Assembly (NCBI GenBank): GCA_012839485.1
Contig: DUNF01000058.1
Span: 1,272-65,271 of the forward strand
DNA: 64,000 nucleotides
Reading direction: 5' to 3'
Origin: Acholeplasmataceae bacterium
GTDB lineage: Bacteria; Bacillota_I; Bacilli_A; ML615J-28; CAG-698
Shown here: piece by piece, positions 9,065-37,957 of the stretch
Numbering within the stretch: the first letter of the stretch is position 1
How the letters are laid out: each line of letters begins with the position of its first letter
Notes under the pieces: model-generated
Database searches by the model: none
What the model was told of the DNA's origin: nothing
Seen by the model: only the letters and a program-made list of their open reading frames with translations
Made by a program: the position numbers and the translations under genes

Positions 9065-9068
9065 TAAA

Positions 9069-9587: not shown

Positions 9588-9589
9588 TT

Positions 9590-21971: not shown

Positions 21972-21986
21972 TTATTCAATTTGCCC

Positions 21987-22015
21987 TTGAAAAAAAATGG
22001 GTTTTGTAGTATAAT
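21987..22015 (+). promoter_or_regulatory. SigA promoter of the 15.9-kb glycan-uptake operon
   Basis: TTGAAA, 17 nt, TATAAT. A 7-1-7 AT palindrome TTATATAgTATATAA follows at 22020-22034. Confidence 0.6.
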
Positions 22016-22054
22016 TTTGTTATATAGTATATAAACTCAAAACGAAAGGAATGA

Positions 22055-23917
22055 TTGAAATTGTATAAGATTTACCCAAAAGTAAAGTATATTAAATATA
22101 CGAAAGATGAATTTACAAAGAAAGACAAGTATTCCGTTTTTTTTACTGAAAATTTAGAAAACGTTTTTACAAACCTAAAGAGTTTTATTAAAGTAAAAAA
22201 AACTAGGAAAGTTGGGGATATTAATTTTATCTATGAAAAAGCAAGATCGGTTCAAACTTACAAACTTGTTATTGAAAAAGATAAAATTGATGTTTATTAC
22301 AATGATGCTAGTGGTGCTTATTACGCAAGCCAAACTTTAAAGCAAATTTTTAAATCTGAAAAGTTAGAAACTGTAGAGATTTGGGATGAACCTAAATTAT
22401 TAGTTAGAGGATTTACTTTAGATATTAGTCGTAATAAAGTGCCTTCATTAAAGACTATCTATAAAATCATTGACCTTATGGCTGAGCTAAAGATGAATCA
22501 TTTTGAGTTATATGTAGAGGGTTTTAGTTATGAGTATGACTTTGCAAGAAAGCATCTATTAGAAGATGGTTATATTACGAAAGAAGAATATAAATTGATT
22601 GAAGATTACTGTTTTGCAAGAGAAATAGATTTTGTTCCTAACCAAAATGGTTTTGGTCATATGGGACCTTGGCTAGCTACTAAAGAATATAAAGATTTGG
22701 CTATTTGTCCTGATGGAGCATTTTATTGGGGAAGACATAGAAGCCCAGTAACATTAGATCCAAAAGACCCAAGATCAATTCAACTTGTAAGCAAGATGTA
22801 TGAAGAGATGCTTCCTAACCGAAAATCTAAATATTTCAATATTAACTTTGATGAACCAATGGAACTTGGTATGGGGAAGACTAAGGAACTTGTGGAAAAG
22901 GAAGGTTTAAGTAATGTTTATTTAGATTATTTAAATCTTGTTTTAGAAGAAGTTAAAAAATATAATAAAACACCGATTATGTGGGGGGATGTTTTAATCA
23001 AAGACCAGGAAGCTTTGAAGAAACTACCTAAAGATATTATTTTTGTAGACTGGGGATATGATGCAACTTATAAGTTTTCTGAAACATTAAAAACTTTAGG
23101 AACTTTGAATATTAAGTTTGGAGCTGCTCCTGGTACTACAAGTTGGTGTAGCTTTACAGGAAGAACACAAGACTTTATTGAGAATATTAAAAGTGCTTGT
23201 GACAATGTTTATAAATACAATGGTTTAGGTATTTTACTAACTGATTGGGGTGATGCGGGACACTTGCAATTACTTCCATCAATTGTAGCACCTTTAGTAT
23301 TTGCAGGGTTTTATTCTTGGAGCCTGCAAGAAGGTGAAATGCTTAATGTAACTAAGTATTTAAACGAAGAAGTATTCCAAGATGAAAAAGGAAATTTTGC
23401 CCAAATATTACTTGGTATTGGTAATTATTATCAATTTGAAAATTACTACATTACAAATGCTACTTTAACTTTCTTTGGTTATATGTGGGCAGATTATGCT
23501 TTAAAGCAAGAAAAGCCATTAGATTATTACTATGAGAAAATTAAAAATAGTGTTATTGAAGATGTTAAATATAAAGCATTAGTAGAGTATTTAGAACTAT
23601 ATCGCAAAGGATTAAAAAACACTAAATTAAAGATTAAAGATAAGAAATTAGTTTTAGCTGAAATTAATCAAAGTATTGATTTAGTTTTAGTTACAAGATT
23701 ATTAATGCAAAGCTTTAATCCTAAATTAGATAAAAACAATAAACTTAAATTATTAGAAAAATTGTTTAAGAATGCAAAGATTTTAGAAAAACAAAAAGAA
23801 TTATGGCTAGCTAGAAATAAGAAAAGCAATTTAGCTGAGTCAATTGAGATGTTAGAGGCTGTCTTTAAATTAGGTAAGCTTCACTACAAAGCATTACAAG
23901 GAGAAAACTATGAGTAA
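22055..23917 (+). CDS. GH20-like beta-N-acetylhexosaminidase-family protein, no signal peptide
   Basis: N-terminal GH20b-like segment (ASGAYYASQTLKQIF), then VRGFTLDISRNKVPSLKTIYKIIDLMAELKMNHFELYVEG (TIM-barrel start) and NINFDEPMELG in the position of the HxGGDE catalytic motif. TTG start; 22061 is an alternative. Confidence 0.6.
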   Translation: MKLYKIYPKVKYIKYTKDEFTKKDKYSVFFTENLENVFTNLKSFIKVKKTRKVGDINFIYEKARSVQTYKLVIEKDKIDVYYNDASGAYYASQTLKQIFKSEKLETVEIWDEPKLLVRGFTLDISRNKVPSLKTIYKIIDLMAELKMNHFELYVEGFSYEYDFARKHLLEDGYITKEEYKLIEDYCFAREIDFVPNQNGFGHMGPWLATKEYKDLAICPDGAFYWGRHRSPVTLDPKDPRSIQLVSKMYEEMLPNRKSKYFNINFDEPMELGMGKTKELVEKEGLSNVYLDYLNLVLEEVKKYNKTPIMWGDVLIKDQEALKKLPKDIIFVDWGYDATYKFSETLKTLGTLNIKFGAAPGTTSWCSFTGRTQDFIENIKSACDNVYKYNGLGILLTDWGDAGHLQLLPSIVAPLVFAGFYSWSLQEGEMLNVTKYLNEEVFQDEKGNFAQILLGIGNYYQFENYYITNATLTFFGYMWADYALKQEKPLDYYYEKIKNSVIEDVKYKALVEYLELYRKGLKNTKLKIKDKKLVLAEINQSIDLVLVTRLLMQSFNPKLDKNNKLKLLEKLFKNAKILEKQKELWLARNKKSNLAESIEMLEAVFKLGKLHYKALQGENYE

Positions 23918-26900
23918 AAATAAGAAAGAATCTCAAGAAAAAGTTGAAGATGTTCAACAAGTAGAACAACAAAAAGAAGCAGTAGCAATTGAAGATGTTA
24001 AGATAACTACTGTGAACTATGATTTAGTTGATTCAAGCGAAAGTAAGTTAAAGCGTAGAACTAATCGCGTGAAGATGATTAAACGAGCAATTTGGCTTAC
24101 AATTTTAGTTTTAATCATGACTATTTTAGTAGTTTCAATTGTGAAGAGTTTTAGACCCGATAGAACAACATCTGATTCAACAATCCCAGAAGAATTATAT
24201 CCAGAAGGTGATTACAATAATTACTTAAGAGCTAAAGCTACAGGTATTACTGATCCTCAAAGGTTAGAAGTACTGGACTTTGATAAAGATATTAAACCAT
24301 TACTTGTAATGCCACAAATTGAAAGTATAGCAGTTAATTTAACTACTGGAGTAGCATCACCAGGATCAATTGATTTTAAATATATAGATGCAGATGATCC
24401 ATATAGCTCAATTGTTTTACCAAATGGGGAAACAAGAGCTGGATATTATACATCAGAAACAGGAAGTGTTACTTTTTCTGTTGATGTTCCAGAGGCTGGA
24501 TTCTATTATTTGAGTTTAGTATATTACGCAGAGAAATCTCGTGATGAAACTTTAAATATTAGAGAAACTAGTGGTGGAGCTAATATTGAAAGAAAAGTTT
24601 TAATTAATGGCCAATTACCATTTGATAGTGCTGGACACATTAGATTTTATAGAATGTGGAAAGATAGAGCAGCAATTGTTCAAGACATTAATGGTAATGA
24701 TATGAAACCATCACAAATGGAAGTATTTGATTTAAGTACAGCTTATGTAAGAGATTATACTGGTTATGTAATAGAACCATATATGTTCCATTTTAAATCG
24801 GGAGCTAATACAATTACTTTTGAGTCTGTTAGAGAAAATATGAGTATTATAGAGTTAAAACTAGAATCGGTTCCAGCAATTGTTACTTATCAAGATTATT
24901 TAAATCAACATCAAGACAAAGCAGAACCAGGTGAAGTAATGTTACAAGTTGAAGGTGAAGATTCGACAAAACGTTCATCTCCAACTTTATATGCAATTGC
25001 TGATCGTACTTCTCCAACAAACACTCCATCGCATCCAGTTAAAGTAACACTAAACTCAATTGGTGGTACAAAATGGACAGCACCTGGAGATTGGATTGAA
25101 TGGGAAGTTGATGTAGAAGAAGCAGGAATGTATGAACTTAGCTTTAAGGCTAAACAAAATACAGCTCGTGGACTTTTCTCTACAAGAAGATTATATATTA
25201 ATGGTGAAATTCCATTTATTGAAGCTAATAGTTCTAATTTTAATTACAGTACAAATTGGCGATTAGTTACGATGGGAAATAGTGAAGAAAACTATAAATT
25301 CTATTTCCATGAAGGTATTAATACAATTAGACTAGAATCTACACTTGGGGCTTATGGTAGTCCTATAAACAAAGTTAGAAATGTAGTTAATAGTTTAAAT
25401 AATATGTACTTGCAAATTATTTCAATAACTACAGTAAACCCAGACCCATATCAAGAATATCACTTATATGGAGACAATGCTCGTATTGTTGGTTTACTAG
25501 AATGTTTTGAAGAAAATGCTCAAGAATTAAGAGAAGTATCAGCCTATATTACTGAACTTTCAGGAGAAAAAGGAAGTTTAGTATCAGTACTAGATACAAT
25601 GGCAATTCAGCTTGAATCATTTTTAGAAAAGCCAAGAACAATTCAAGAAAGATTAGGAACGTTTGTTCAAAACTTATCTTCACTTGGAACTTGGATTACT
25701 AGTATTCAAGAACAATCACTAACAGTAGAAGCTTTATATGTTTCTAGTAGTGATGCAGAATTACCAAAACCAAATGCTGATTGGTTTAGTGATGTTTGGT
25801 TTGATATTAAAGCTTTCTTTATGACTTTCTTCTTTGATTATCAATCAATTGGAGTAACAAACGCTGAAGGTTTTGATAAAGAAATTGAAGTGTGGTTTTT
25901 AACTAGTGCTGTTGCCGGTAGGGAACAAGCTAACGCAATGAAGACTTTGTGTGACACAACATTTGTTAATCAAAAAGGAATTAACGTTATTTTAAAGGTT
26001 GTAGATCCGGGAGTATTATTACCGGCTACACTTGCTGGTACAGGTCCAGATGTAGCCTTGAACGTTTATAACGGATTACCTGTAAACTATGCTTTAAGAA
26101 ATGCTGCTTATGATATTACTCAATTTGATGACTTCCGATATGAAGTTACTGAATATGGTGTTAAGGTATGGCTAGATGGTGAAGCTAATCCAAGATTTGC
26201 TGATAGTGCAATGACGCCTTATGCTTTACAAAAGACAGCAGATATTCATGATTTAGAGTTTTATGCTTTACCAATCACTCAATCTTTCTTAGTTACTTTC
26301 TATCGTAAAGATATTTTCCAAGAAAGAGGTTGGACAGTACCTAAAACTTGGGATGAAGTTACAAGTTTAGTAACAGAGTTACAAATTTCTAACTTACAGT
26401 TCTATTTACCACTAAGTGCAGTTGGAGCATCAGCAGCAGTAAACCAAGTGTTCTCATCAATGTTATTCCAAAATGGTGGTGATTTCTATACTGAAGATAA
26501 AACAGCTACAGCCTTAGATAGCGAAGAAGCAATGCAATCATTTGAAACTTGGGTTAAGTATTATACAGATTATTCTTTCCCAACAGCCGCAAGCTTCTTA
26601 AATAGATTTAGAACTGGTGAAACTCCAATTGGAGTTGTAGATTATACAATTTTTAACTACTTAGCTGTATTCGCACCAGAGATTACTGGTAAATGGGGTT
26701 TTGCACCGATTCCAGGTGTGAGAAATCCAGAAACAGGTGTTATCAATAACAAAGGTGCATCAAGTGGAACAGCAGGTATTATTATGAAACAAGCAAAAGA
26801 TCCTGAGTCTAGTTGGGAATTCTTAAAGTGGGTTACATCAGCCCCAACTCAACTATCATATGCTCAGGAATTAGAGTCAATTTTAGGTTCAGCAGCTCGT

Positions 26901-27170
26901 CATAATACAGCTAATATGGAAGCATTCAAGAGTATGGCTTGGACAGTAGAAGAAAAAGATATTCTATTATCACAATGGGTTAATACAATTGGTATTCCAG
27001 AAGTAGCTGGTGGTTACTATACAGGAAGAAACGTAGAGAATGCCTTTAGAAAAACGATTAACGAAAAGTTAAATCCTAGAGAAGTACTACTTACCTATGT
27101 AGATACTATTAATGCCGAGTTAACAAAGAAAAGAAAAGAATTTGGTTTTATAACTAGAGAGGATGAATAA
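23910..27170 (+). CDS. Giant membrane-anchored extracellular solute-binding protein with two CBM-like beta-sandwich modules
   Basis: 1086 aa. Charged N-terminus, then one TM (AIWLTILVLIMTILVVSIV). Two segments with the CBM6/35-like pattern (GSVTFSVDVPEAGFYYLSLVYYA; GDWIEWEVDVEEAGMYELSFKAK). The C-terminal ~430 aa resemble family-1 sugar SBPs (GTGPDVAL, VPKTWDEVTSL). Confidence 0.65.
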   Translation: MSKNKKESQEKVEDVQQVEQQKEAVAIEDVKITTVNYDLVDSSESKLKRRTNRVKMIKRAIWLTILVLIMTILVVSIVKSFRPDRTTSDSTIPEELYPEGDYNNYLRAKATGITDPQRLEVLDFDKDIKPLLVMPQIESIAVNLTTGVASPGSIDFKYIDADDPYSSIVLPNGETRAGYYTSETGSVTFSVDVPEAGFYYLSLVYYAEKSRDETLNIRETSGGANIERKVLINGQLPFDSAGHIRFYRMWKDRAAIVQDINGNDMKPSQMEVFDLSTAYVRDYTGYVIEPYMFHFKSGANTITFESVRENMSIIELKLESVPAIVTYQDYLNQHQDKAEPGEVMLQVEGEDSTKRSSPTLYAIADRTSPTNTPSHPVKVTLNSIGGTKWTAPGDWIEWEVDVEEAGMYELSFKAKQNTARGLFSTRRLYINGEIPFIEANSSNFNYSTNWRLVTMGNSEENYKFYFHEGINTIRLESTLGAYGSPINKVRNVVNSLNNMYLQIISITTVNPDPYQEYHLYGDNARIVGLLECFEENAQELREVSAYITELSGEKGSLVSVLDTMAIQLESFLEKPRTIQERLGTFVQNLSSLGTWITSIQEQSLTVEALYVSSSDAELPKPNADWFSDVWFDIKAFFMTFFFDYQSIGVTNAEGFDKEIEVWFLTSAVAGREQANAMKTLCDTTFVNQKGINVILKVVDPGVLLPATLAGTGPDVALNVYNGLPVNYALRNAAYDITQFDDFRYEVTEYGVKVWLDGEANPRFADSAMTPYALQKTADIHDLEFYALPITQSFLVTFYRKDIFQERGWTVPKTWDEVTSLVTELQISNLQFYLPLSAVGASAAVNQVFSSMLFQNGGDFYTEDKTATALDSEEAMQSFETWVKYYTDYSFPTAASFLNRFRTGETPIGVVDYTIFNYLAVFAPEITGKWGFAPIPGVRNPETGVINNKGASSGTAGIIMKQAKDPESSWEFLKWVTSAPTQLSYAQELESILGSAARHNTANMEAFKSMAWTVEEKDILLSQWVNTIGIPEVAGGYYTGRNVENAFRKTINEKLNPREVLLTYVDTINAELTKKRKEFGFITREDE

Positions 27171-27172
27171 GT

Positions 27173-28168
27173 ATGGCTGAAAAAGTTATAGCAGATAATC
27201 AGGCTATTAAGAAAAGAAGATCTTTTCGTGAGTGGAAAGAAGATACTGCTCGCCGTTTAGATGTTTGGAGCAGGAAAAAGCCAGCAAGAAGAAAATTTTG
27301 GTTAAATAAAACATTATATTTAATGATGGTTCCTTATTTAGCATTATTTTTCTTATTTACTGTTTTACCTGTTTTAATGAGCTTCTTCTTAAGTTTTACA
27401 TATTTCAACTTACTTGAAGCTCCAAAATTTATCGGTTGGTCAAACTACTTAACACTATTATTAGATGATCCAATTTTCATTGTAGCGGTGCAAAATACTT
27501 TAATTATTGCGATTATTACTGGGCCACTTGGATATATAATTTCCTTTGTCTTAGCTTGGTTAATTAATGAATTACCAGATAAACTAAGAGCATTTATAAC
27601 TTTAATTTTCTATGCTCCATCTATTTCTGGAGGAGCGATTACAATTTGGAGTTTGATTTTCTCTAGTGATATTTATGGTTATGCCAATTCTTTCTTAATC
27701 AATTGGGGATTTATTAGAGAACCTATTCTTTGGCTTCAAACAGAAAAATACATATTGCCGATTGTAATTATTGTTCAGCTTTGGATGAGCTTAGGGGTTA
27801 ACTTCTTAACCTTAATTGCTGGTCTAAAAGGTGTAGACAGATCACAATACGAAGCAGCAGCAGTTGATGGTGTTAAAAACCGTTGGCAAGAGTTATGGTA
27901 TATTACTTTACCAAACATGAGACCACAGCTTTTATTTAGTGCTGTGTTGCAAATCTCTGCATCACTTGGTGTTGGTGCTGTAACTACTGCTTTAGCTGGT
28001 TTCCCTTCAATTAACTATGCCGGTCATACAATTGTAAACCACTTACAAGACTATGGTGGACAAAGATTTGAGATGGGTTATGCCTCAGCAATTGCCACAA
28101 TCCTTTTCGTTTCGGCGATAGCATTAAATAAATTAATTAGAAAAATTATTGGAAGGGTGGGATCATAA
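27173..28168 (+). CDS. Carbohydrate ABC transporter permease (MalF/BPD_transp_1 type), pair 1
   Basis: Six TMs and an EAA-like loop AAAVDGVKNRWQELWYITLPNMRP. Basic ~50-aa N-terminal tail. Confidence 0.85.
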   Translation: MAEKVIADNQAIKKRRSFREWKEDTARRLDVWSRKKPARRKFWLNKTLYLMMVPYLALFFLFTVLPVLMSFFLSFTYFNLLEAPKFIGWSNYLTLLLDDPIFIVAVQNTLIIAIITGPLGYIISFVLAWLINELPDKLRAFITLIFYAPSISGGAITIWSLIFSSDIYGYANSFLINWGFIREPILWLQTEKYILPIVIIVQLWMSLGVNFLTLIAGLKGVDRSQYEAAAVDGVKNRWQELWYITLPNMRPQLLFSAVLQISASLGVGAVTTALAGFPSINYAGHTIVNHLQDYGGQRFEMGYASAIATILFVSAIALNKLIRKIIGRVGS

Positions 28169-29163
28169 TGGCTGAAGCAAGAAAAAAATTAACTGCAGCT
28201 GAAAAAGCTCAGTTAAAAGAAGATAAAAAAGCTCTTCGTAATGCAAAACGTGCTAAACGTATTGACTCACGACCTTTCGCAGAAATAAGTACGATTAAAG
28301 TACATCGTCGTAGTAAGAAAAGAAAAAGAATTAATAGATCAGTTGGGGGAGACTTAGTACTATTTTTCTTCCTATGTTTAGCGGGAATTTTAAGTGCATT
28401 GCCATTAGTATTAGTAATAAACAATGCCTTTAAACCTTTAGATGAGTTATTCAAGTTCCCACCAAACATTATTGTAAGAAACCCAACTTTAGATAACTTC
28501 ACAGATTTGAGTGTTGCACTAGCTAACTCAACTGTTCCGTTTGCTAGATATTTATTTAATACAGTTATGGTAACAATACTTGGAACAGTAGGACACGTAG
28601 TTATTGCCTCAATGTGTGCTTATCCACTTGCAAAATATAAGATTCCAGGTGGAACGATTATCTTTACAATTATCGTTTATTCTTTAATGTTCCCAGGAGC
28701 AGTAACCTCTATTCCTAACTACATTATCTTTAACTGGATTGGTTTAATTGATAATCCACTAGCTTTAATATTGCCGATGATAGGATCATCCTTAGGATTA
28801 TTCTTGATGAAACAGTTTATGTCTCAAGTACCAACGTCCTACATTGAATCGGCGAAGTTAGATGGTGCTGGCGATTTTAAGATTTTCTGGACTATTGTTA
28901 TGCCATTAGTAAAACCAGCTTGGATTACTTTAATTATTCTAGTTTTCCAAAGTTTATGGAATACACAAGGAGCGATGTATATTTATCGTGAAGACTTTAA
29001 GATGGTAAGTTATGCCCTATCGCAAATAGCTACAGCTGGAGCTGCAAGATCGGGTACATTAGCTGCGGTAAGCTTAATTATGATTACCGTACCAATAACA
29101 ATGTTTATTATTTCCCAAAGTAGTATGCTTGAAACAATGGCTACAAGTGGATTAAAGGATTAA
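28168..29163 (+). CDS. Carbohydrate ABC transporter permease (MalG type), pair 1
   Basis: EAA-like loop ESAKLDGAGDFKIFWTIVMPLVKP. Lys/Arg-rich ~60-aa N-terminal tail. Confidence 0.85.
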   Translation: MAEARKKLTAAEKAQLKEDKKALRNAKRAKRIDSRPFAEISTIKVHRRSKKRKRINRSVGGDLVLFFFLCLAGILSALPLVLVINNAFKPLDELFKFPPNIIVRNPTLDNFTDLSVALANSTVPFARYLFNTVMVTILGTVGHVVIASMCAYPLAKYKIPGGTIIFTIIVYSLMFPGAVTSIPNYIIFNWIGLIDNPLALILPMIGSSLGLFLMKQFMSQVPTSYIESAKLDGAGDFKIFWTIVMPLVKPAWITLIILVFQSLWNTQGAMYIYREDFKMVSYALSQIATAGAARSGTLAAVSLIMITVPITMFIISQSSMLETMATSGLKD

Positions 29164-29166
29164 GCT

Positions 29167-31673: not shown

Positions 31674-31688
31674 AAGGAGGAAAATAAG

Positions 31689-34600
31689 TTGAAAATTATT
31701 AGATTAAGACATATTGTTTTAGGTCTATTAGTTATAGCAATTGGTATTACTTTAAGTGTTTACTTTATTGGTGGCCTAAAGGCAACAACTATTAGCTATG
31801 ATAATAAAGAATTCAATTCTGAAGAATTTTTGCTTGATTTTTCTCATCTAGAACAATATGATCGTAAAATTACTTTTAAGGCAGGATTTCCTGCAAGTGA
31901 TATTGACAATGTAGCTAATGCATTACAAACAGCAGGTTACAAAGTTGAAAAAACAGATTACTATGGCAATACAGCAATCTACCTTAACTTAAATGTTGGT
32001 TATAATGAAGAAGACATTGCTAATGAAATGTATATTGCTCAACTTGCTATTGCTAGACTTTTTGAAGCTGGTGATTTTGATATGGTCATCTATGAAGATG
32101 ATTTAGGTGAACCAGGAGTTGACAACTTAAAAATTGTAGCAACAACAGACAAGGGCAAAGCTGCTTTTCAAAAGATTGTAGATAAATTAACTGCATTAAA
32201 CTTCTTTGATACTTACGAAACAGCTATTATTCAAGTACCTAAAGAAGGTGGAGAAGAAGGTGAAATGGAAGATCAAGAAATCGTTCTTCCAAATAATACT
32301 AATATAGATTTTGATAATCATACTATTGTTTTCGATTATCCAATTAAGTTAATTGAAACTAAGATGTCAGAACTAGCAATAGTTCAAAAAGCAATTCCAG
32401 ATCCAGATGAAGAAGTTCTTGCAAATATTCGTCAAGATACACAAAGAGCAGTTAGTATTTTAAATGATATTGCTGAGTCAATTGTTTTAAATTCAGTTTT
32501 AGATAGCATTGAATATCAAACATCAATTTTTGAAGAAGAAAGAATTGTAGCTCAAAATGAAAAGTTTACAATGTATATTAACGAAAAAACAACGGCTATT
32601 TCGATTGGTTTAAATTCAACTGGAACACCAAAGAAAGTTGGTGGACTTCAAGTTCAAGATAAAAATGGCTTCTCAGTATATGAATCATTTAATGTTTTAT
32701 ATCAGTTAAGTGATTACACAAACGAAAGAGGCGAATTAGTTAGTGGTGATGTTTTTAGACTTCGTTATTTTGGTCGAAGCGGAAAAGTTTCAGCAACAGC
32801 TTTAGGAACATATTCGAAGAGTGTAGCTTATATGGACTTAATTAAAGGTATGGCTACAAAACACTACAAGATTAATTATGCTGGGGATAACAAAGTTCAA
32901 GTTTTATATGAAGTTGGTGAATTTACTAACGCTAACAACTTCTTCCCTAAATATATTGAAAGAGAAGTATTTGAAGATGTAGTTAGAGGTAACACTTGGA
33001 TTACAAAAGTTGTATCATCTGAGCGTGATTCACAAGGTCATTTTAATTTAATTTATCGTGAAAATGGTGTTACAACAAACGAAGAAGCTGCAAATTATAT
33101 TGAAGCAAATGGTTTAGGTAAAGCAACACCAGCTTATAGTGCTGATGGTACTAATACTTTCTTAGGCTATTGGGATTTAAGTGGATTGCTTTGGACAGAA
33201 GCAGATTATGAAGATGGTAAAGTAACTATAGATAAAGTTGGAAAACCAAAGTTGGTTGTGGGGGTAAACTGCAATACTAAAGATTCTCCTGTTCGAGTTA
33301 ACCCATTCTTAACAGCGGCTAATATTAAGTCAATTATGGATGGTAACTATGAACTTATCTATAACATAACTACTAATGAAACAAATAAAAACTATATTCA
33401 CTATACAGAAAATAGCTCTAAGACTTATGAGAATAAGGCTACATCAGAAGCAAGAAGAAATGAATTATATATGTTCTTATATGATACTAGTCCAACTAAC
33501 TATATGAGAACTAGTACTTCGGTTATAGATAAATATGATGATAGTAAAATTGTTTATTATGAAGGTAAACCAGTAGTTCAAGGTGGAGTTCCACTAAGAG
33601 ACGCAGAAGGAAACTATGTTTATGATCAACTAGGTAATCCAGTTCGTGCTCAATTTAGTGAACCTTTCTTAGCAGCTGAAGGCGAAGAAAGAAGAAATAT
33701 TGTAGAAGAGCAAAACAGGATTTACCAACAAAGTGCCGCTTCCGCAAGTGCGATTTTCCAAGTTGGAGTTCAATACGAGCTTACATTAAATGGTTTAAAA
33801 TTTGATGTTTTACACGATTCAATTAAAGAAGGCGCTAGTGGTGAAGATGGTTATCCTCATGAATTCAAAATTTCAAGTATTGAAGTTTTACCTTTCTTTA
33901 ATAAAAACTTTGACCATAACTCTGAAGGGGAAATTATTATCCCTGATGGTAGTGGAGCTGTTATTAGTTTTAATAGTGATAAACAAGATCAATTCGTAGC
34001 GGGTTATCAACCGAAAAAGATTTATGGTTTTGATAAATCGCAAATCTTACGTACAGCACCAGCTGATGTTCAAACAATAATGCTACCAATGTATGCTTAT
34101 TTAGATAAGACAGAAAATGTTGGGGTTATTGGTATTATTGAATCTGCTCCAAGTCATCATAGTATTGTAGCTGACTTTATGAGAACAAGAACAGCAGGTA
34201 GTTCAAACTATGTTAACTATGAAGTAAGTATGAGAGATTCTGAGTTTGTAAATGTTGGAAGATCATGGTATGTATCTTCATATCAAAAATGGTCAAAATC
34301 GATGATTCCTACGGACTTATCATATTACTTCCAGTTCATTGTTCCAGAAACAATTGAAGATGGGGAAGTAAAATCAAATGCTAACTTTAATTATGTAGAG
34401 GTAGCAAAGCAATATCGTCGTTATTTAATTAACAAATATAATTTAAAAGAAATTGATAAAACTAAGACTAATGTAGTTAATCTAAACTTCTTAGGTGCTT
34501 TTGAAAAAGATACAATGACAGCTGGATTTGTTTATCAAAAAACACATAGTCTAACAACTTTTGAAGAAGCACAAGAGATTATTGAAATCTTAAAAGAAAA

Positions 34601-35642
34601 AGGTGTAAAAAACTTTAGTGTTAGTTATACATCATGGACTAAAGATGAGATGGAACCTAAAGCAAGAAAAGATATTAGAATTTCTAACGTTTTAGGTGGA
34701 ACAAAAGGCTTTAAAAAGTTAAGTGAATTCTTAACTGAGAACAATATTAATTTCTATCCAGAAGTTAATGTTTCTACAAACCAAGGATATGACTATCCAT
34801 TTGGTATGAGAAAGTACAATGCTAAGAGTGTAAGTAATACAGAAACTGTATATTATCCTTATGTAGTACCTACTGGTAGATTTGATCGTTCTCTTGCTCC
34901 GATTTATCATATTTCACCTCGTTTTTATCAATCATACTTTAATAAATACTTAGCTAATTATGAGAAACTTAACACTTCGGGTATTTACTTATCTGATTTA
35001 GGTAACTTAAAAGTTTCATCATATGATAATAAAAAAGAAATTTTTACTGCTGTTGGTCAAGATTATCAAATAGCTACATTAGACATAGCTAAAGAGTCTG
35101 GTAAAAAGGTAATGCTTAAAAATCCGTTTGATTACGCATTACAATATGCAAATATTATTGTTGATGCACCAGTTACTACAACTTTATATCCAGCAGTAGA
35201 GCATTCGATTCCTTTATATCAATTAGCATTAAGTGGATTAGTTGACTATACAACAACTACAGTTAACTATAACAATCAACAATCTTATCGTTGGTATCTA
35301 TTAAAAGCTTTGGAGACTGGTTCGAATTTGAACTTCGTAATTTCATATGCGGATACTAATACCTTACTAACGACTGATTATACAGAGTACTTTAATACTT
35401 ACTTCCTAAACTGGGAAAACAAAATTGTTGAGATGAATCAAAGAATCAATGAGGCAGGAATTCACCAAGGAAGATTAGTAGACCATAAGTACATTACAGA
35501 CAACGTAGTTCAATCTACGTATGCAAATGATTTGGGTGTTGTTTGTAGAGTTATTATTAACTATGCCAATAGCCAATACTTAGATAGCGTAAATGGAATT
35601 TCCATTGCTGCAAATGACTATGTCATCTTGGAAGGAGAATAA
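31689..35642 (+). CDS. 1317-aa membrane-anchored extracellular protein of unknown function (possibly DUF5696-type, putative glycan-active)
   Basis: TTG start 8 nt after AGGAGG. N-terminal TM (IVLGLLVIAIGITLSVYFIGG). No catalytic motif recognised by eye. The DUF5696 suggestion rests on my recollection that such proteins accompany Yip1 plus ABC-permease clusters, and needs an HMM test. Confidence 0.4.
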   Translation: MKIIRLRHIVLGLLVIAIGITLSVYFIGGLKATTISYDNKEFNSEEFLLDFSHLEQYDRKITFKAGFPASDIDNVANALQTAGYKVEKTDYYGNTAIYLNLNVGYNEEDIANEMYIAQLAIARLFEAGDFDMVIYEDDLGEPGVDNLKIVATTDKGKAAFQKIVDKLTALNFFDTYETAIIQVPKEGGEEGEMEDQEIVLPNNTNIDFDNHTIVFDYPIKLIETKMSELAIVQKAIPDPDEEVLANIRQDTQRAVSILNDIAESIVLNSVLDSIEYQTSIFEEERIVAQNEKFTMYINEKTTAISIGLNSTGTPKKVGGLQVQDKNGFSVYESFNVLYQLSDYTNERGELVSGDVFRLRYFGRSGKVSATALGTYSKSVAYMDLIKGMATKHYKINYAGDNKVQVLYEVGEFTNANNFFPKYIEREVFEDVVRGNTWITKVVSSERDSQGHFNLIYRENGVTTNEEAANYIEANGLGKATPAYSADGTNTFLGYWDLSGLLWTEADYEDGKVTIDKVGKPKLVVGVNCNTKDSPVRVNPFLTAANIKSIMDGNYELIYNITTNETNKNYIHYTENSSKTYENKATSEARRNELYMFLYDTSPTNYMRTSTSVIDKYDDSKIVYYEGKPVVQGGVPLRDAEGNYVYDQLGNPVRAQFSEPFLAAEGEERRNIVEEQNRIYQQSAASASAIFQVGVQYELTLNGLKFDVLHDSIKEGASGEDGYPHEFKISSIEVLPFFNKNFDHNSEGEIIIPDGSGAVISFNSDKQDQFVAGYQPKKIYGFDKSQILRTAPADVQTIMLPMYAYLDKTENVGVIGIIESAPSHHSIVADFMRTRTAGSSNYVNYEVSMRDSEFVNVGRSWYVSSYQKWSKSMIPTDLSYYFQFIVPETIEDGEVKSNANFNYVEVAKQYRRYLINKYNLKEIDKTKTNVVNLNFLGAFEKDTMTAGFVYQKTHSLTTFEEAQEIIEILKEKGVKNFSVSYTSWTKDEMEPKARKDIRISNVLGGTKGFKKLSEFLTENNINFYPEVNVSTNQGYDYPFGMRKYNAKSVSNTETVYYPYVVPTGRFDRSLAPIYHISPRFYQSYFNKYLANYEKLNTSGIYLSDLGNLKVSSYDNKKEIFTAVGQDYQIATLDIAKESGKKVMLKNPFDYALQYANIIVDAPVTTTLYPAVEHSIPLYQLALSGLVDYTTTTVNYNNQQSYRWYLLKALETGSNLNFVISYADTNTLLTTDYTEYFNTYFLNWENKIVEMNQRINEAGIHQGRLVDHKYITDNVVQSTYANDLGVVCRVIINYANSQYLDSVNGISIAANDYVILEGE

Positions 35643-35644
35643 TT

Positions 35645-36880
35645 ATGAATCAAAATCAAACTAAAAAAACCTTCAAAGAAAAATGGAATGACTATTTTGC
35701 TAGGAGAAGATATTATATTGCTTTAGAAGAACAAGCAAAGCAAGATAAAATCCAAGCCAAAAGAGAAAAAGAGATGCAAAAGCAACTTGAAAAAGATCAA
35801 AAAGCTCAAGCTAGAAGAGACAAAGTTACTTGGTATAAAAAAGTTAAATGGGCAATTCAAGACTTTTTCCATAAGATTAACAACTCAAAACCAGTTGTAA
35901 AGGTAAAAGATGCTTTATCTTTTGTTCCAAGAAAACTAACTAGGAATTTAACTCATAGAAAAAAGAAAGCTTTATGGGGAGTTGTCTTTGTAATTCCGCT
36001 AATTATTGGTTTTGGTTATTTCTTCTTAATTCCGTTTATTACAACTGTTTTCTATAGTTTTTCTCATATTCAAACGATAGGTTTAAATCCTGTTACAGGA
36101 GATAATATGGGAGTTATTACTGAAAATATTGGTTTTGATAACTATCAATTTGTTTGGAATCAACATTCTACATTCAGACAAAGATTATTAACTTCATTTG
36201 GTAACACTTTACTTGAAGTACCATTAGTATTAATTTTCAGTTTAATTATCGCAGTTGTTTTAAATACACAATTTCCTGGCCGTAGTTTTGTAAGAGCAGT
36301 CTTCTTTATGCCAGTTATCTTTAACTCACAAGCAGTTGAAGTTGCAATGAAAACAGGAGCAGAATTAACAGCTGCTACTGCAGAAACAACAAGTACAATG
36401 TTCCAAGGTGGATTTGACTTTAGTTTCTTCTTACTCGAAGCGGGAGTTCCGGGAGGTGTTGTAACCTTCTTGGGCAATGTAACGTCCTCGATTTATGATG
36501 TAATTACATATTCGGGGGTTCAAATCTTAATTTTCTTAAGTGCGATTCAATCAGTTCCTAAACATCTATATGAAGCAGCTAAAATGGAGGGGGCAACTCA
36601 ATATGAAATCTTCTGGAAAATTACTTTCCCAATGGTTTCACCATTAATGCTTACGGCAGGTGTTTATACTGTTGTTGACTCCTTCTTACGAAGTGATCTC
36701 TTAAGTATTTTAGATTATTATTCAGTAAATAACTTTGTAGCCTTAACTGGTGGTTTAGGTATGGTTACTGCTCATGGTATTCATGCGGCTATGAGCTGGT
36801 TATTCTGTTTATCATCAATCATACTAATATCTTTAGTATTGATTGTAATATCAAGGGTGGTGTTCTATTATGACGAGTAA
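35645..36880 (+). CDS. Carbohydrate ABC transporter permease (MalF type), pair 2, with ~100-aa Lys/Gln-rich N-terminal extension
   Basis: EAA-like loop EAAKMEGATQYEIFWKITFPMVSP. N-terminal QAKQDKIQAKREKEMQKQLEKDQKAQARRDK. Confidence 0.85.
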   Translation: MNQNQTKKTFKEKWNDYFARRRYYIALEEQAKQDKIQAKREKEMQKQLEKDQKAQARRDKVTWYKKVKWAIQDFFHKINNSKPVVKVKDALSFVPRKLTRNLTHRKKKALWGVVFVIPLIIGFGYFFLIPFITTVFYSFSHIQTIGLNPVTGDNMGVITENIGFDNYQFVWNQHSTFRQRLLTSFGNTLLEVPLVLIFSLIIAVVLNTQFPGRSFVRAVFFMPVIFNSQAVEVAMKTGAELTAATAETTSTMFQGGFDFSFFLLEAGVPGGVVTFLGNVTSSIYDVITYSGVQILIFLSAIQSVPKHLYEAAKMEGATQYEIFWKITFPMVSPLMLTAGVYTVVDSFLRSDLLSILDYYSVNNFVALTGGLGMVTAHGIHAAMSWLFCLSSIILISLVLIVISRVVFYYDE

Positions 36881-37904
36881 ACAAAAAATTGTAGTACCAC
36901 AAGAATATTATTCTAAACCTGTTTTAACTGAGCATGAAAAAAAGACAAGAAGAAAAGTTTATGCCCAAAAAGTTGGTGGTAGAGCTGGTAGAATTTTTAG
37001 AACGCTTATTTTAATAGGATTATGTTTTGTAATTCTTTTACCGATTTTCCAAAAATTCTCTTATGCGTTTAGATCACCTAACGACTTAACTAATCCTCAA
37101 GTTGTTTGGATTCCATCTGAATTTAGTACAGCTAATATTGGTTTAGCCATGGACTTACTTGATTATTGGCCTACTTTAGTAAGAACTACACTTCTTTCTT
37201 TAGCAGTAATGTTTATCCAAGTTATGGCATCAGCAATAGCCGGTTATGCTTTTGCTAAGTTAAGATTTAAAGGAAGTAATATTCTCTTTTATCTTATTCT
37301 CTTTACCTTAGTTGTACCGAATGAGACTTTACATGTTTCAAGATCGTTATTCTTAGTTAACACAACATTTTTTGGTATAAAGTTGATGGGAACAGTACTA
37401 TCCATATTTATCCTATCAGCATTTGGTCAAGGAATAAGATCAGCGATTTTCATTTATCTTTTCAGACAGTTCTTTAGAAATATACCAGCAGAACTAGAAG
37501 AATCTGCGCAAGTGGATGGTGCTGGTGTTATTAGAACATTCTGGAGTGTAATGTTACCAAACGCTAGAGGAGCGATAGTTGTTGTGGCATTGTTTGCTTT
37601 TGTATGGCAATGGAATGATTATTACTTTGCGAGATTGTTTAGTATCGTTCAATCATATCCGGTATTAGCAGCTCGTTTAGGGGAAGGAACGGATCGTTTG
37701 TTTACGGTTATTAGTGGTTGGGTAGCCAAAGGTAAACCCATCTTTGATACTTTAACGGATGAAGCTTTAGCGACCGATCCGATGTTCTATGGATTAATTG
37801 CGAATACTGCAGCACTACTAATGATGCTACCGTTATTAATCGGTTATTTCTTCGTTCAAAAACAATTTGTAGAGGGAATTGAAAGAACCGGAATCACGGG
37901 ATAA
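36870..37904 (+). CDS. Carbohydrate ABC transporter permease (MalG type), pair 2
   Basis: EAA-like loop ESAQVDGAGVIRTFWSVMLPNARG. Overlaps the upstream gene by 11 nt. Confidence 0.85.
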   Translation: MTSKQKIVVPQEYYSKPVLTEHEKKTRRKVYAQKVGGRAGRIFRTLILIGLCFVILLPIFQKFSYAFRSPNDLTNPQVVWIPSEFSTANIGLAMDLLDYWPTLVRTTLLSLAVMFIQVMASAIAGYAFAKLRFKGSNILFYLILFTLVVPNETLHVSRSLFLVNTTFFGIKLMGTVLSIFILSAFGQGIRSAIFIYLFRQFFRNIPAELEESAQVDGAGVIRTFWSVMLPNARGAIVVVALFAFVWQWNDYYFARLFSIVQSYPVLAARLGEGTDRLFTVISGWVAKGKPIFDTLTDEALATDPMFYGLIANTAALLMMLPLLIGYFFVQKQFVEGIERTGITG

Positions 37905-37907
37905 ATA

Positions 37908-37940: not shown

Positions 37941-37957
37941 TGTTTAAGGAGGATTTG

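Follow-up and report, generated by a model that had tools for sequence, protein, structure and literature searches.

The window analysed here is a 64-kb stretch of DNA in which nine plus-strand open reading frames, g1 to g9, occupy positions 22055-37904; all further features described below lie on the same strand. The successive junctions measure -8, +2, -1, +3, -1, +15, +2 and -11 nt, in agreement with the initial annotation, which had described nine genes with junctions between an 11-nt overlap and a 15-nt gap. A sigma-70-like site, TTGAAA-17-TATAAT (21987-22015, matching 11 of 12 consensus positions), was assigned to the operon. It is the top promoter-like site in 21000-40500, a region in which promoter-like matches, taken as a class, are no more frequent than in shuffled sequences, and it lies just 3' of a hairpin copy at ~21948-21974. 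The top terminator-like site in the same region is a putative intrinsic-terminator-like hairpin at 37908-37936, with a T-rich tail after its 13-bp stem.

Only 3 nt past this hairpin, at 37940, starts the gene for a cytoplasmic fusion of GH3 (NagZ-like) and NagB (GlcN-6-P deaminase) domains (37940-40219, Pfam), with no promoter-like site between the two. Read-through is likely, because this gene lacks a promoter-like site of its own and because in 48 loci GH3 (NagZ) follows the conserved genes, with a median distance of 64 nt (NagB occurs in 41 loci). The best sites of their class thus do flank the nine genes, as claimed earlier, but the supposedly strong terminator is probably leaky, and the functional unit therefore probably extends downstream of g9.

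The first gene, g1 (22055-23917), encodes a cytoplasmic GH20 beta-N-acetylhexosaminidase-like protein with Pfam GH20b and GH20 catalytic domains, PDB matches to GH20 enzymes and a D-E pair at residues 266-267. Neither a signal peptide nor a TM segment was found in it, which bears out its description as a leaderless hexosaminidase; the RBS spacing favours an in-frame TTG at 22061 over the TTG at 22055. Homologs occur upstream of the other eight genes in about 27 loci only, and g1 is a lineage-specific accessory gene outside the core.

Translocators and binding proteins

Two permease pairs are encoded, and all four proteins carry the BPD_transp_1 domain. Pair 1 consists of the MalF/UgpA-like F1 (g3, 27173-28168; UgpA/GlcT-like NCBIfam match; EAA loop YEAAAVDG) and the MalG/UgpE-like G1 (g4, 28168-29163; EAA loop IESAKLDGAG), and pair 2 of the MalF-like F2 (g8, 35645-36880; EAA loop YEAAKMEGAT) and the MalG/UgpE-like G2 (g9, 36870-37904; EAA loop EESAQVDGAG). 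Both G1 and G2 have UgpE/GlcU/MalG-like matches. With an EAA loop in each of the four sequences, both pairs look like real importers. F2 bears a charged, cytoplasmic N-terminal tail of ~110 aa and is collinear in all loci, while conservation within the core is highest for g3 and g4 (44-81% identity, leaving out three near-identical loci).

An ABC ATPase is absent from the whole 64-kb window, where no Walker-A motif was found in any frame. The missing nucleotide-binding subunit noted for the operon is thus real, but it is ordinary rather than anomalous, since Firmicute CUT1 importers use a shared MsmX/MsmK ATPase encoded elsewhere and usually lack one of their own.

The 1086-aa giant binding protein g2 (23910-27170) is composed of a cytoplasmic tail, a TM signal-anchor, two CBM6/35-like modules, a helical stalk and a CUT1 solute-binding domain, the last identified by Pfam SBP_bac_1 at residues 679-981 and by PDB matches to sugar SBPs. 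The two CBM-like modules proposed earlier gain support from the g2 profile A4, which matched the CBM35 of CITase (E = 1.2e-7) and other CBM6/35 entries weakly; positions 445-507 matched coiled-coil entries in the profile search. Every ortholog examined has the N-terminal TM anchor. Although g2 is the only SBP in the operon, as first noted, the locus holds a second one 3.4 kb downstream of the core, in a Big_2 lipoprotein (41277-44462) with the lipobox LLFGC, Big_2 repeats by Pfam and a divergent C-terminal CUT1-type SBP domain. The only matches to a profile of its C-terminal 460 aa were sugar SBPs, namely GacH and 4g68 (E = 2.7e-6) and MalE (1e-3). The Big_2-SBP protein family occurs in 52 loci, and in the Clostridia locus L087 a stand-alone 497-aa protein of the same family as this SBP adjoins the core (hhalign 98.5%).

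Propeller, Yip1 and DUF5696 proteins

The exported protein g5 (29167-30948) combines a signal peptide, a six-bladed NHL beta-propeller, a TPR-like helical bundle and a C-terminal TM helix. Pfam detected the TPR, and a PDB sequence search matched NHL and TPR proteins. Its AF2 model is of only moderate confidence (pLDDT 76, pTM 0.75); by Foldseek it resembles the NHL propellers of TRIM71, Thin and Brat, as well as Pizza6 and the PknD sensor domain. The adjoining g6 (30948-31673) is a polytopic membrane protein with six TM-like segments and a Yip1 domain (Pfam 45.2 bits against a cutoff of 28.6). Both assignments had been made in the initial annotation and held. The start codon of g6 and the stop codon of g5 share 1 nt, and in four Clostridia loci (L084-L087) NHL-(TPR)-Yip1 is one polypeptide of 665-709 aa, collinear with g5 then g6. 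Because of this fusion, its collinearity and the stop/start overlap in the window, g5 and g6 are regarded as one functional unit.

The largest protein, g7 (31689-35642, 1317 aa), is exported and TM-anchored, with a lineage-specific N-terminal region followed by a DUF5696 module (PF18952, E = 4e-123). The module is predicted to form a beta-sandwich, a (beta/alpha)8 barrel and a second beta-sandwich (AF2 model, pLDDT 92, pTM 0.92). Foldseek placed GH129 first (E = 2e-24, TM 0.6), followed by GH101, GH36 and GH31, and the DUF5696 family profile matched ZgGH129 (E = 1.5e-13) and NagBb (3e-8). The suspected DUF5696 and GH-clan TIM-barrel similarity was thereby recovered, and on this modelling g7 has a remote GH129/GH101-like fold. 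Conserved residues include the PDGSG motif at 752-756, D782, N1193 and E1209, among others, and an export signal is found in 215 of the 224 DUF5696 family members. The catalytic Asp/Glu of GH129/GH101 could not be mapped in g7, as the half of the barrel bearing them has no detectable sequence similarity; of its most strongly conserved acidic residues, some (D753, D782) are located in the N-terminal sandwich.

Conservation, host and genomic island

It was found that g2-g9 form a strictly collinear eight-gene core, SBP-F1-G1-NHL-Yip1-DUF5696-F2-G2. Of 81 loci, 61 carry the core whole, and in 79 it forms a contiguous collinear run. These loci come from Acholeplasmatales, Izemoplasmatales, Haloplasma, Bacillaceae, Paenibacillus and Clostridia, and the order is kept in Clostridia even at 21-26% DUF5696 identity. 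The genes are thus co-conserved across many Firmicutes, where the initial annotation had mentioned similar clusters of a Yip1, a giant protein and permeases. At the protein level, the DUF5696 domain of g7 has ~97% identity to a 'Bacilli' MAG and 88% to an Acholeplasma MAG, from which the host is probably a wall-less, Acholeplasma-like organism. Such a host would account for tethering to the membrane rather than to a wall, which need no longer be seen as an anomaly; walled relatives carry the same surface proteins with cleavable signal peptides or lipoboxes.

The module sits in an island of ~40 kb devoted to peptidoglycan and amino-sugar catabolism. Its surface component is a NamZ lipoprotein of the exo-beta-N-acetylmuramidase family (45595-47316; Pfam NamZ_N and NamZ_C, lipobox LVGC), carried on a ~200-aa helical stalk; NamZ recurs in 18 loci. 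It is followed by MurNAc pathway genes (47328-52897, Pfam) for a GH3-MupG (NagZ-MupG) fusion, a BadF-type sugar kinase, AnmK and a MurQ-like etherase, whose products have no signal peptides and are read as cytoplasmic; a sugar kinase lies near the core in 10 loci and MurQ in 9. Between the NagZ-NagB fusion and NamZ are also a double-GNAT acetyltransferase (40216-41172, Pfam), which recurs in 28 loci, and a putative DUF624/YesL-like membrane protein (44575-45375). The latter had no Pfam match at the threshold used; it has six TM-like segments, and its N-terminus resembles the DUF624 cluster representative (35 loci). Upstream, 15758-21263 encodes a DAP/ornithine decarboxylase-like enzyme, an M19 dipeptidase, a beta-lactamase-fold PBP4B-like protein, a GNAT and a GHL10 protein (Pfam, NCBIfam), all without signal peptides and read as cytoplasmic. 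These genes may serve peptide-stem catabolism, with the PBP4B-like protein a candidate muropeptide amidase or peptidase. The cytoplasmic set of the island, which includes the GH20 g1, is completed by a D-lactate-dehydrogenase-like Etf system.

Proposed working, cargo and relation to known transporters

On the evidence of their content, folds, locations, gene order and fusion, g2-g9 encode a conserved module for sugar import in Bacillota, whose multiple subunits centre on two CUT1-type ABC translocators. In the proposed working, the CBMs of g2 would hold a polymeric glycan, g7 would cut or trim it into importable pieces, and the SBP domain of g2 would dock on F1/G1, while the Big_2 lipoprotein most likely serves F2/G2. 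The g5/g6 unit, with g5 rooted in the membrane via g6, would be the scaffold that joins the surface proteins with both translocators, and the gene for the shared MsmX-type ATPase that powers these would lie outside the window. Judging from gene order and one fusion, the module proteins may form a physical complex.

The cargo in this lineage is probably GlcNAc/MurNAc-containing fragments of other bacteria's cell walls, because the module sits in the peptidoglycan/amino-sugar island. The ecology also counts for this reading, as dead bacterial biomass labelled with 13C was assimilated mainly by Acholeplasma (PMC4628116). The enzymes GH20, GH3 and NagB would suit chitin oligomers or N-glycans just as well. 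A poor fit to a peptidoglycan cargo also lies in g7: its relatives in GH129 and GH101 have alpha-linked sugars as substrates, but the glycan of peptidoglycan is joined by beta-1,4 linkages. The conserved residues of g7 are moreover unchanged between loci, although the accessory enzymes there point to widely different substrates, and such a fixed putative active site would be unexpected in a substrate-specific depolymerase. Against the overall explanation also count the unmapped catalytic pair of g7 and, in two Clostridia loci, an unexplained pair of orthologous ATPases of the LolD/MacB type immediately upstream. Taken whole, the import module, its proposed working and a cell-wall-fragment cargo in this lineage form the best explanation, which we hold to be moderately probable.

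Neighbouring CAZymes differ completely between lineages, comprising elsewhere GH38 and GH20, a Melibiase_C-domain protein, GH16 and GH2, GH31, or GH130 and GH35. The core therefore appears to be a substrate-agnostic chassis, with specificity supplied by the binding domains and lineage-specific neighbour enzymes. The proposal of an uncharacterised surface system capturing and importing an N-acetylhexosamine polymer is thus strengthened by the co-conservation, the DUF5696 barrel and the island, but the HexNAc/peptidoglycan substrate holds for this lineage and not for the module as such.

No description of the eight-gene core was found in the searchable literature, consistent with the claim of an undescribed system. 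The Yip1 protein, initially viewed as out of place, has a bacterial precedent in YknW, a Yip1 assembly subunit of an ABC transporter, which modulates the assembly of YknXYZ (PMC4887032) and on which the scaffold role of g5/g6 is modelled. The module is a real, undescribed multi-component variant of the CUT1 sugar importer.

Operon layout and conservation of the core

Nine open reading frames on the forward strand were found exactly as the initial annotation had placed them: g1 (22055-23917), g2 (23910-27170), g3 (27173-28168), g4 (28168-29163), g5 (29167-30948), g6 (30948-31673), g7 (31689-35642), g8 (35645-36880) and g9 (36870-37904). Successive junctions measure -8, +2, -1, +3, -1, +15, +2 and -11 nt. 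Nearly all domain assignments made from the raw sequence were confirmed by Pfam and NCBIfam. A promoter-like site (21987-22015, TTGAAA-17-TATAAT, 11/12 match) is the top-scoring site of its class within 21000-40500, and a hairpin with a 13-bp stem and a T-rich tail (37908-37936) is the top terminator-like site in the same interval. Promoter-like matches were not enriched over shuffles there (66 found, 93.5 expected), so the operon promoter is assigned by position and quality only. The GH3-NagB open reading frame starts 3 nt past the hairpin with no promoter-like site between, and in 48 related loci a GH3 gene lies 3' of the core, a median of 64 nt away. Leakiness of the terminator is therefore probable, and the functional unit probably extends downstream. 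No riboswitch or leader was found 5' of the operon at Rfam gathering thresholds, and the only matches reaching the gathering score in the window were an L31 ribosomal-protein leader (13378-13412, minus strand) and a small SRP RNA (14677-14772, plus strand).

Conservation was assessed in 80 loci from species-representative genomes and one metagenomic locus, onto which the window proteins were mapped by tblastn. The search for related loci used a 15-sequence DUF5696 alignment, which biases the set toward the Acholeplasma-like subfamily, and flanks 5' of the core were cut. The eight-gene core (g2-g9), in the order giant substrate-binding protein (SBP), F1, G1, NHL, Yip1, DUF5696, F2 and G2 on one strand, is complete in 61 of the 81 loci. 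It is contiguous and collinear in 79 of the 81, the run being limited only by contig ends, which answers for Firmicutes the question of whether these genes are co-conserved. A narrow pattern search matched at least 122 species-representative genomes. Hosts include Acholeplasma (among them A. laidlawii strain 8195), Izemoplasmatales, Haloplasma, Halalkalibacter, Bacillus sp., Lederbergia, five Paenibacillus species and a Ruminococcaceae metagenome-assembled genome (MAG). Six more loci, reached through distant homologs with 21-26% DUF5696 identity, have the same gene order.

The DUF5696 domain of g7 shares, at the protein level, 97% identity with its counterpart in a 'Bacilli bacterium' MAG and 88% with the one in an Acholeplasma sp. 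MAG. Together with a window G+C content of about 30%, these identities mark the host as Acholeplasma-like, and by its closest relatives it is taken to be a monoderm, wall-less member of the Bacillota. Tethering of the large surface proteins to the membrane and not to a wall had been counted as an oddity; in a host taken as wall-less it is ordinary. DUF5696 proteins of the Mollicutes-like clade have transmembrane anchors, whereas those of walled Paenibacillus and Clostridia usually have a cleavable signal peptide or a lipobox. An export signal was found at the N-terminus of 215 of 224 full-length DUF5696 proteins.

The first gene, g1, encodes a GH20b and a GH20 catalytic domain with a D-E pair at 266-267 and without a signal peptide. 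A homolog lies 5' of the core in about 27 loci, in the closer clade only, and g1 is placed outside the core. In g2, residues 679-981 match SBP_bac_1 (model positions 12-306 of 307, E = 1.7e-21), and PDB sequence matches of this domain are sugar SBPs. A profile of the N-terminal half built from 16 orthologs matched the CBM35 of cycloisomaltooligosaccharide glucanotransferase (E = 1.2e-7) and, weakly, other CBM6/35 modules, so the 'two CBM-like modules' were rightly called; a coiled-coil-like segment follows them in the profile search. The four permeases (g3, g4, g8 and g9) are BPD_transp_1 proteins, all above the Pfam gathering score, of the MalF/UgpA and MalG/UgpE types, with best NCBIfam matches to UgpA, UgpE, GlcT, GlcU, MalF and MalG. 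An EAA loop is present in every translation: YEAAAVDG (g3), IESAKLDGAG (g4), YEAAKMEGAT (g8) and EESAQVDGAG (g9). Cytoplasmic N-terminal tails of about 45-110 aa, rich in Lys, Arg and Glu, were observed on g2 and on all four permeases; the Paenibacillus permease orthologs are shorter (288-328 aa), and the long charged tails seem to be lineage-specific.

Two further features had been put forward as anomalies, the missing ATPase and the single SBP. A scan of all frames of the 64-kb window for Walker-A motifs found none, so the absence stands and extends beyond the operon; it is, however, ordinary for Firmicute CUT1 importers, in which a single MsmX/MsmK ATPase, encoded at another site, is shared by many permease pairs. 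Two Clostridia-type loci, L083 (1118-2854) and L087 (1-1372), have two ABC ATPase genes directly 5' of the giant SBP gene; these pairs are orthologous, with 54-55% identity between the loci, and may power the core or be part of a neighbouring exporter. These proteins are of the LolD/MacB/FtsE type and not of the MalK/MsmX type, and one has a C-terminal AbrB/SpoVT-like domain. They were not adopted as the missing ATPases, being of another type and absent from the other loci examined.

The single SBP holds within the operon but not for the locus. A 1061-aa lipoprotein with Big_2 repeats (Big_2-SBP, 41277-44462) has a C-terminal domain of about 460 aa, whose profile from 18 orthologs matched sugar SBPs only (GacH and 4g68, E = 2.7e-6; MalE, 1e-3). 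Members of this family were found in 52 loci, typically about 3.4 kb 3' of G2, and in L087 the family adjoins the core as a stand-alone 497-aa protein (hhalign 98.5%, E = 4e-15). With this second SBP the locus comprises two binding proteins for its two permease pairs, F1/G1 (pair 1) and F2/G2 (pair 2). In Paenibacillus and in other Clostridia-type loci the core has ordinary SBPs at its flanks.

The DUF5696 protein and the propeller-Yip1 pair

The largest core protein, g7 (1317 aa), belongs to DUF5696 (PF18952, E = 4e-123, residues 683-1311), and Pfam finds no other family in it at E <= 0.01. A PDB search with the single g7 sequence gave no match. An AlphaFold2 model of the domain, computed from a 53-sequence alignment (pLDDT 92.3, pTM 0.92), places an alternating beta/alpha barrel between an N-terminal and a C-terminal beta-sandwich. 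Foldseek matched this model to the GH129 3,6-anhydro-D-galactosidase ZgGH129 (E = 2e-24, query TM 0.60-0.62), the GH129 alpha-GalNAc-ase NagBb of B. bifidum (E = 1e-21, TM ~0.59), the F. plautii galactosaminidase (E ~1e-13, TM ~0.52), GH101 endo-alpha-GalNAc-ases (E = 1e-14 to 1e-11, TM 0.43-0.48) and GH36 and GH31 enzymes (E ~1e-11, TM 0.40-0.50). Over the GH129 matches as a group, E runs from 2e-24 to 1e-20 and TM from 0.58 to 0.62. The suggested check of 31689-35642 for DUF5696 and for similarity to a glycoside hydrolase-clan TIM barrel was thus positive, by Pfam for the first and by a GH129/GH101-like barrel for the second. The family profile also matches ZgGH129 (E = 1.5e-13) and NagBb (3.3e-8) by sequence, so that DUF5696 is, on fold and profile together, remotely homologous to GH129.

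Alignment to GH129 extends over the N-terminal domain, the first barrel half and the C-terminal domain, and not over the half that bears the catalytic Asp/Glu in GH129 and GH101. Here an alternative has to be weighed, in which g7 is a dead GH129-like glycan receptor, or 'pseudo-glycosidase', that holds the polymer or feeds pair 2 while other, lineage-specific enzymes depolymerise. With a profile of the second barrel half, neither GH129 nor GH101 was retrieved at a threshold as loose as E <= 10, and no acidic residue conserved at 85% or more lies between domain positions 300 and 520, as a receptor would lead one to expect. The same reading is favoured by the location of the most invariant motif of the family, PDGSG, in the N-terminal sandwich, by conserved g7 residues that stay unchanged across loci with different apparent substrates and very different CAZyme sets, and by the position of g7, always directly 5' of pair 2. 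The conservation pattern across a 236-sequence alignment of diverse DUF5696 proteins speaks for an enzyme instead. Besides P752 and G756 (both 100%), G754 (99%) and S755 (97%), it includes the near-invariant D753 (96%), D782 (91%), N1193 (99%), E1209 (94%), H1266 (93%) and N1291 (98%), which look active-site-like. Column 1171 is D or E in 84%; it and E1209 are the candidate catalytic residues by conservation, and their spacing of 38 residues is close to that between nucleophile and acid/base in GH129 and GH101. Moreover, pair 2 probably already has a dedicated SBP, the second one of the locus. Overall, enzyme activity of g7 is plausible from model and alignment, and we consider a pure receptor unlikely.

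GH129 and GH101 enzymes are alpha-specific and the glycan of peptidoglycan is beta-linked, a weakness of any proposal that g7 acts on it. Residues ~30-680 of g7 (window 31776-33734) are conserved in closer relatives only. The GH129-like N-terminal motif (family consensus VAEN...W.S.P) apparently begins near residue 285, so that large lineage-specific insertions and an extra N-terminal region of about 250 aa are implied. The family is large, with 3,223 clusters at 50% identity reaching E <= 1e-3 and 854 reaching E <= 1e-30; neither DUF5696 nor PF18952 is mentioned in the literature searched, which comprised PMC papers and preprints and had subscription-only papers outside its scope.

Upstream of g7, g5 shows similarity to NHL and TPR proteins in Pfam and in a PDB sequence search (NHL region of Thin, E = 9e-5). 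Its model, of moderate quality (pLDDT 76, pTM 0.75), contains a beta-propeller, a TPR-like helical bundle and a long terminal helix. Foldseek matched it to six-bladed NHL propellers, namely TRIM71/Lin41, Thin, Brat, the designed Pizza6 and the extracellular sensor domain of PknD, with target TM up to ~0.72. As modelled, the propeller is a generic ligand-binding or scaffolding fold that points to no specific function. The next gene product, g6, is a Yip1 protein (PF04893, 45.2 bits against a cutoff of 28.6, model positions 2-172 of 173) with six TM-like segments. In four distant Clostridia-type loci (L084-L087), NHL(-TPR) and Yip1 domains are fused in one polypeptide of 665-709 aa; in the L086 fusion (7975-10014), a stretch collinear with g5 (E = 8e-29, TPR and TM helix included) precedes one collinear with g6 (E = 5e-8). 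Such a Rosetta-stone fusion and the 1-nt overlap between the g5 stop and g6 start codons show, at the level of gene structure, that g5 and g6 form one functional unit, predicted to consist of a propeller outside the cell and a polytopic protein that anchors it in the membrane.

From these components a mechanism with five parts can be proposed, which we consider reasonably probable as a whole. The CBMs of g2 would capture the polymer, and its SBP domain would deliver oligosaccharide to F1/G1. The polymer would be cleaved or trimmed at the surface by g7, while g5/g6 would act as a membrane hub organising the surface proteins and both translocators. Big_2-SBP would serve F2/G2, and both translocators would be powered by a shared ATPase. 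A scaffold role for Yip1 has one documented bacterial precedent, by analogy: YknW, a Yip1-family protein, modulates assembly of the YknXYZ ABC transporter (PMC4887032).

A stronger proposal is made tentatively, as we regard it as less likely to be right than wrong: that the core is a new class of ABC import super-complex and a counterpart, in Gram-positive bacteria, of the Bacteroidetes utilisome. In such a complex the Yip1/NHL hub would join two CUT1 translocators, the CBM-bearing giant SBP and a GH129-like enzyme, so that capture, cleavage and import of two product classes take place on one machine. DUF5696 would then be a new glycoside hydrolase (or transglycosylase) family with an active site formed partly from the N-terminal domain. 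A physical complex is suggested by gene order and one fusion. The opposite possibility is that two ordinary CUT1 importers with their own SBPs lie side by side with co-regulated but independent surface proteins. Firmicute sugar loci often stack transporters, every component comes from a known family, and the two SBPs match the two permease pairs in number. Such independence is hard to reconcile with a gene order that is invariant across very distant Bacillota, down to 21-26% DUF5696 identity, and unrearranged in 79 of 81 loci, with NHL/Yip1 and DUF5696 genes always between the permease pairs. Junctions that overlap or nearly abut, the propeller-Yip1 fusion and the documented part of a Yip1 protein in ABC transporter assembly weigh in the same direction, and we find mere juxtaposition quite improbable.

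Neighbouring genes and the probable cargo

In the window the core lies in an island of peptidoglycan and amino-sugar genes. Upstream are an M55 D-aminopeptidase (7327-8130, minus strand), a group on the plus strand (15758-19016) comprising a DAP/ornithine-decarboxylase-like protein, an M19 dipeptidase and a PBP4B-like protein of beta-lactamase fold, and a GNAT protein. The M55, M19, DAP-decarboxylase-like and PBP4B-like set would suit breakdown of stem peptides (D-amino acids, meso-DAP). Just upstream of the operon is GHL10 (PF02638, 'glycosyl hydrolase-like 10', 19980-21263) without a signal peptide, a second uncharacterised GH-like TIM-barrel family within the same island. Downstream follow a fusion of GH3 (NagZ-like) and NagB (GlcN-6-P deaminase) without a signal peptide (37940-40219), a double GNAT, the Big_2-SBP lipoprotein, a DUF624-like protein, NamZ of the exo-beta-N-acetylmuramidase family with the lipobox LVGC (45595-47316), and a fusion of GH3 and MupG (6-phospho-N-acetylmuramidase), also without a signal peptide (47328-49949). 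A BadF-type kinase (from 49949), AnmK (from 50863) and a MurQ-like protein (from 51971) come next. The two GH3 fusions are unusual; NagZ and NagB are separate adjacent genes in some loci (e.g. L061). Directly after MurQ, 52881-56988 encodes an alpha/beta hydrolase, EtfB, EtfA and an FAD-linked oxidase, the oxidase being plausibly an Etf-coupled D-lactate dehydrogenase for the D-lactate that MurQ releases from MurNAc-6-P.

The predicted surface proteins of the island are g2, g5/g6, g7, Big_2-SBP and NamZ; all other enzymes are predicted to be cytoplasmic. NamZ carries a Glu/Lys/Ala-rich helical stalk of about 200 aa ahead of its catalytic domains and is a predicted surface lipoprotein, the only clearly peptidoglycan-specific enzyme predicted outside the cell. 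The overall sequence of events would therefore be surface capture and trimming, import of oligosaccharides and cytoplasmic dismantling of GlcNAc-MurNAc-peptide units. An open reading frame that runs off the window end (57152-64000, >2,280 codons) has an LTVVGC lipoprotein-like signal, a Big_2 domain and a long coiled-coil-like segment rich in Ala, Glu, Leu and Gln, and is probably a very large surface protein.

The interval separating GHL10 from the operon promoter contains a toxin-antitoxin cassette (21261-21974), made up of an AbrB/MazE-type antitoxin (21376-21645) and, 3' of it, a RelE/ParE-like toxin whose frame is broken at an A-run (near 21716-21724) by a stop or frameshift. Two copies of the hairpin AAAAAGAGCATAAAATGCTCTTTTT flank the cassette (21261-21287 and ~21948-21974), and this pairing suggests an insertion. 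The 89-aa MazE/AbrB-like open reading frame was considered as the operon regulator and rejected, as an AbrB-family domain followed by a frameshifted RelE-like toxin; it was likewise rejected as a remnant of an ATPase C-terminus, its similarity to the L083 tail being weak. No dedicated regulator was found among the annotated open reading frames of the island. Regulators do occur in Paenibacillus and Halalkalibacter loci, either as an AraC-type response regulator accompanied by a histidine kinase or as a protein that is AraC-like by sequence.

Recurrent neighbours of the core were identified by clustering the flank open reading frames of all loci, followed by Pfam annotation. The most frequent are the Big_2-SBP lipoprotein (52 loci), GH3 NagZ-like proteins (48), NagB (41), a DUF624 membrane protein (35), GNAT (28) and GH20 (27), followed by NamZ exo-beta-N-acetylmuramidase (18), BadF-type sugar kinases (10), MurQ-like etherases (9) and the phosphodiester glycosidase NAGPA (8). 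Other lineages have quite different enzymes beside the same core. In Paenibacillus these are GH20 and GH38 alpha-mannosidase (L074) and a protein with a melibiase (alpha-galactosidase) C-terminal domain (L072); in Clostridia-type loci they are GH16 and GH2 (L084), a CBM4_9 protein and a faint GH95 match (L085), GH31 and a GDSL esterase with a weak dockerin match (L086), and GH130 and GH35 (L087). The core is therefore a substrate-agnostic chassis, and the HexNAc or peptidoglycan cargo that had been proposed for the operon is retained, on the island genes, for the window lineage only and not for the core as such.

Even for this lineage, the cargo might be another GlcNAc-rich glycan (chitin oligomers, N-glycans or host glycans), with a different transporter serving the MurNAc genes. 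The genes nearest the core (GH20, GH3-NagB, GNAT) act on GlcNAc or GlcN generally, and those specific for MurNAc lie at least 7.7 kb 3' of g9. Among solved SBPs the nearest one binds GlcNAc-containing HMO blocks, a weak NCBIfam match to the chitobiose SBP NgcE was obtained, and the GH20 and GH38 next to Paenibacillus cores and the GH130 and GH35 next to one Clostridia core are N-glycan-like sets. Set against this are the recurrence of NamZ, MurQ and the sugar kinase beside the core, the lack of any other sugar transporter in the annotated parts of the window, and the presence of M19, M55, DAP-decarboxylase-like, PBP4B-like and AnmK proteins in the island. In stable-isotope probing, cell material of dead E. 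coli was assimilated predominantly by Acholeplasma (PMC4628116), which fits a peptidoglycan-catabolism layout. A non-peptidoglycan cargo is thus possible but doubtful, and peptidoglycan is kept as the preferred cargo of the window system.

Export or assembly of the organism's own surface glycan (lipoglycan or EPS) was also considered. Large surface proteins and a glycosidase- or transglycosylase-like fold could in principle remodel a surface polymer, and the ATPases 5' of the core in the two loci mentioned are of an exporter type (LolD/MacB). BPD_transp_1 permeases, EAA loops and SBPs constitute type I importer architecture, however, no glycosyltransferase or polymerase genes occur in or beside the core, and its neighbours are catabolic. 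A biogenesis role was rejected on this architecture and context as highly improbable.

Significance and comparison with known systems

Each part of the core comes from a known family (CUT1, CBM35, NHL, Yip1, GH129-like fold), and its overall logic is that of gram-positive polysaccharide-utilisation loci (gpPULs). What is new is the invariant eight-gene chassis, in which two translocators occur together with an NHL-Yip1 unit, DUF5696 and a giant SBP bearing CBMs, and for which no function has been described. The proposal that the operon is an undescribed system agrees with our search, in which no description of the module was found among 7.7 million PMC papers and 0.34 million preprints (subscription-only literature lay outside its scope). 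The operon is less anomalous than had been argued, as there are ordinary explanations for the lack of an ATPase, for the single SBP and for the tethering to the membrane.

If the proposed mechanism is true, it would define a widespread modular glycan-uptake chassis in Bacillota. Its three universally conserved components without an assigned role are DUF5696, the NHL/TPR propeller and the bacterial Yip1 protein; a function would be gained for a DUF, a GH129-related fold and bacterial Yip1 proteins, and the idea of a surface glycan-processing machine would extend to monoderm bacteria. A peptidoglycan-catabolism island of about 40 kb in a wall-less host points to a cell-wall necromass niche for free-living Acholeplasma-like organisms, consistent with the published stable-isotope probing (PMC4628116). 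A. laidlawii carries the core (L059, at 278-300 kb on the chromosome of strain 8195) and, as reported, has a genetic toolbox (PMC10805103), so these hypotheses should be directly testable. The core module is a solid, testable lead.

Like CUT1 importers of the MalFGK2/UgpAEC type, the core has a family-1 SBP, MalF/MalG-like pairs and EAA loops, and its locus has no ATPase gene, the usual Firmicute arrangement (MsmX in B. subtilis, MsmK in streptococci). It differs in locking two permease pairs and, as three obligatory additions, an NHL/TPR propeller, Yip1 and DUF5696 into one invariant order; its main SBP is a TM-anchored protein of about 1000 aa with two CBM35-like modules, and its second SBP belongs to a divergent family. 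With gpPULs and the Bacteroidetes utilisome it shares the capture-cleave-import logic, with glycan binding, a surface glycosidase-like protein, a transporter and catabolic enzymes co-localised; in the window, an ABC importer lies beside GH20, two GH3 fusions, NamZ and GHL10. Unlike a Sus-like PUL, the window system has no SusC/SusD pair among the annotated open reading frames and no outer membrane. It departs from typical gpPULs in that one and the same eight-gene chassis is combined with interchangeable sets of CAZymes, and no dedicated regulator was found among the annotated open reading frames of the window island, the adjacent AbrB-like protein being an antitoxin.

With the GH129 enzymes NagBb and ZgGH129 of Zobellia and with GH101, g7 shares the sandwich-barrel-sandwich fold (Foldseek E = 2e-24 to 1e-12, TM ~0.6), and its profile homology to GH129 spans the N-terminal domain, the first barrel half and the C-terminal domain. 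The catalytic barrel half is not alignable, the invariant PDGSG lies outside the aligned blocks, and g7 is always encoded between the Yip1 gene and an ABC permease pair. The YknWXYZ system of Bacillus (YknW, the MFP YknX and MacB-type YknYZ) likewise pairs a Yip1 protein with an ABC transporter. YknYZ is a MacB-type exporter of a peptide toxin, whereas the core partners are type I sugar importers and the core Yip1 is coupled or fused to an extracellular NHL propeller.

The known MurNAc salvage routes (NamZ-NagZ-AmiE-MurQ of B. subtilis, MupG of S. aureus, AnmK of E. coli) have their counterparts in the island, which holds NamZ, NagZ-like proteins, MupG, AnmK, a MurQ-like protein, a BadF-type kinase and NagB. 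No PTS domain, and hence no MurP-type PTS, was found among the annotated open reading frames of the window, and uptake would go through the core ABC module. The island NagZ is predicted to be cytoplasmic and is fused to NagB and to MupG, and NamZ is a predicted surface lipoprotein. In contrast to recycling in walled bacteria, the pathway of a host taken as wall-less would be purely catabolic, serving to scavenge.
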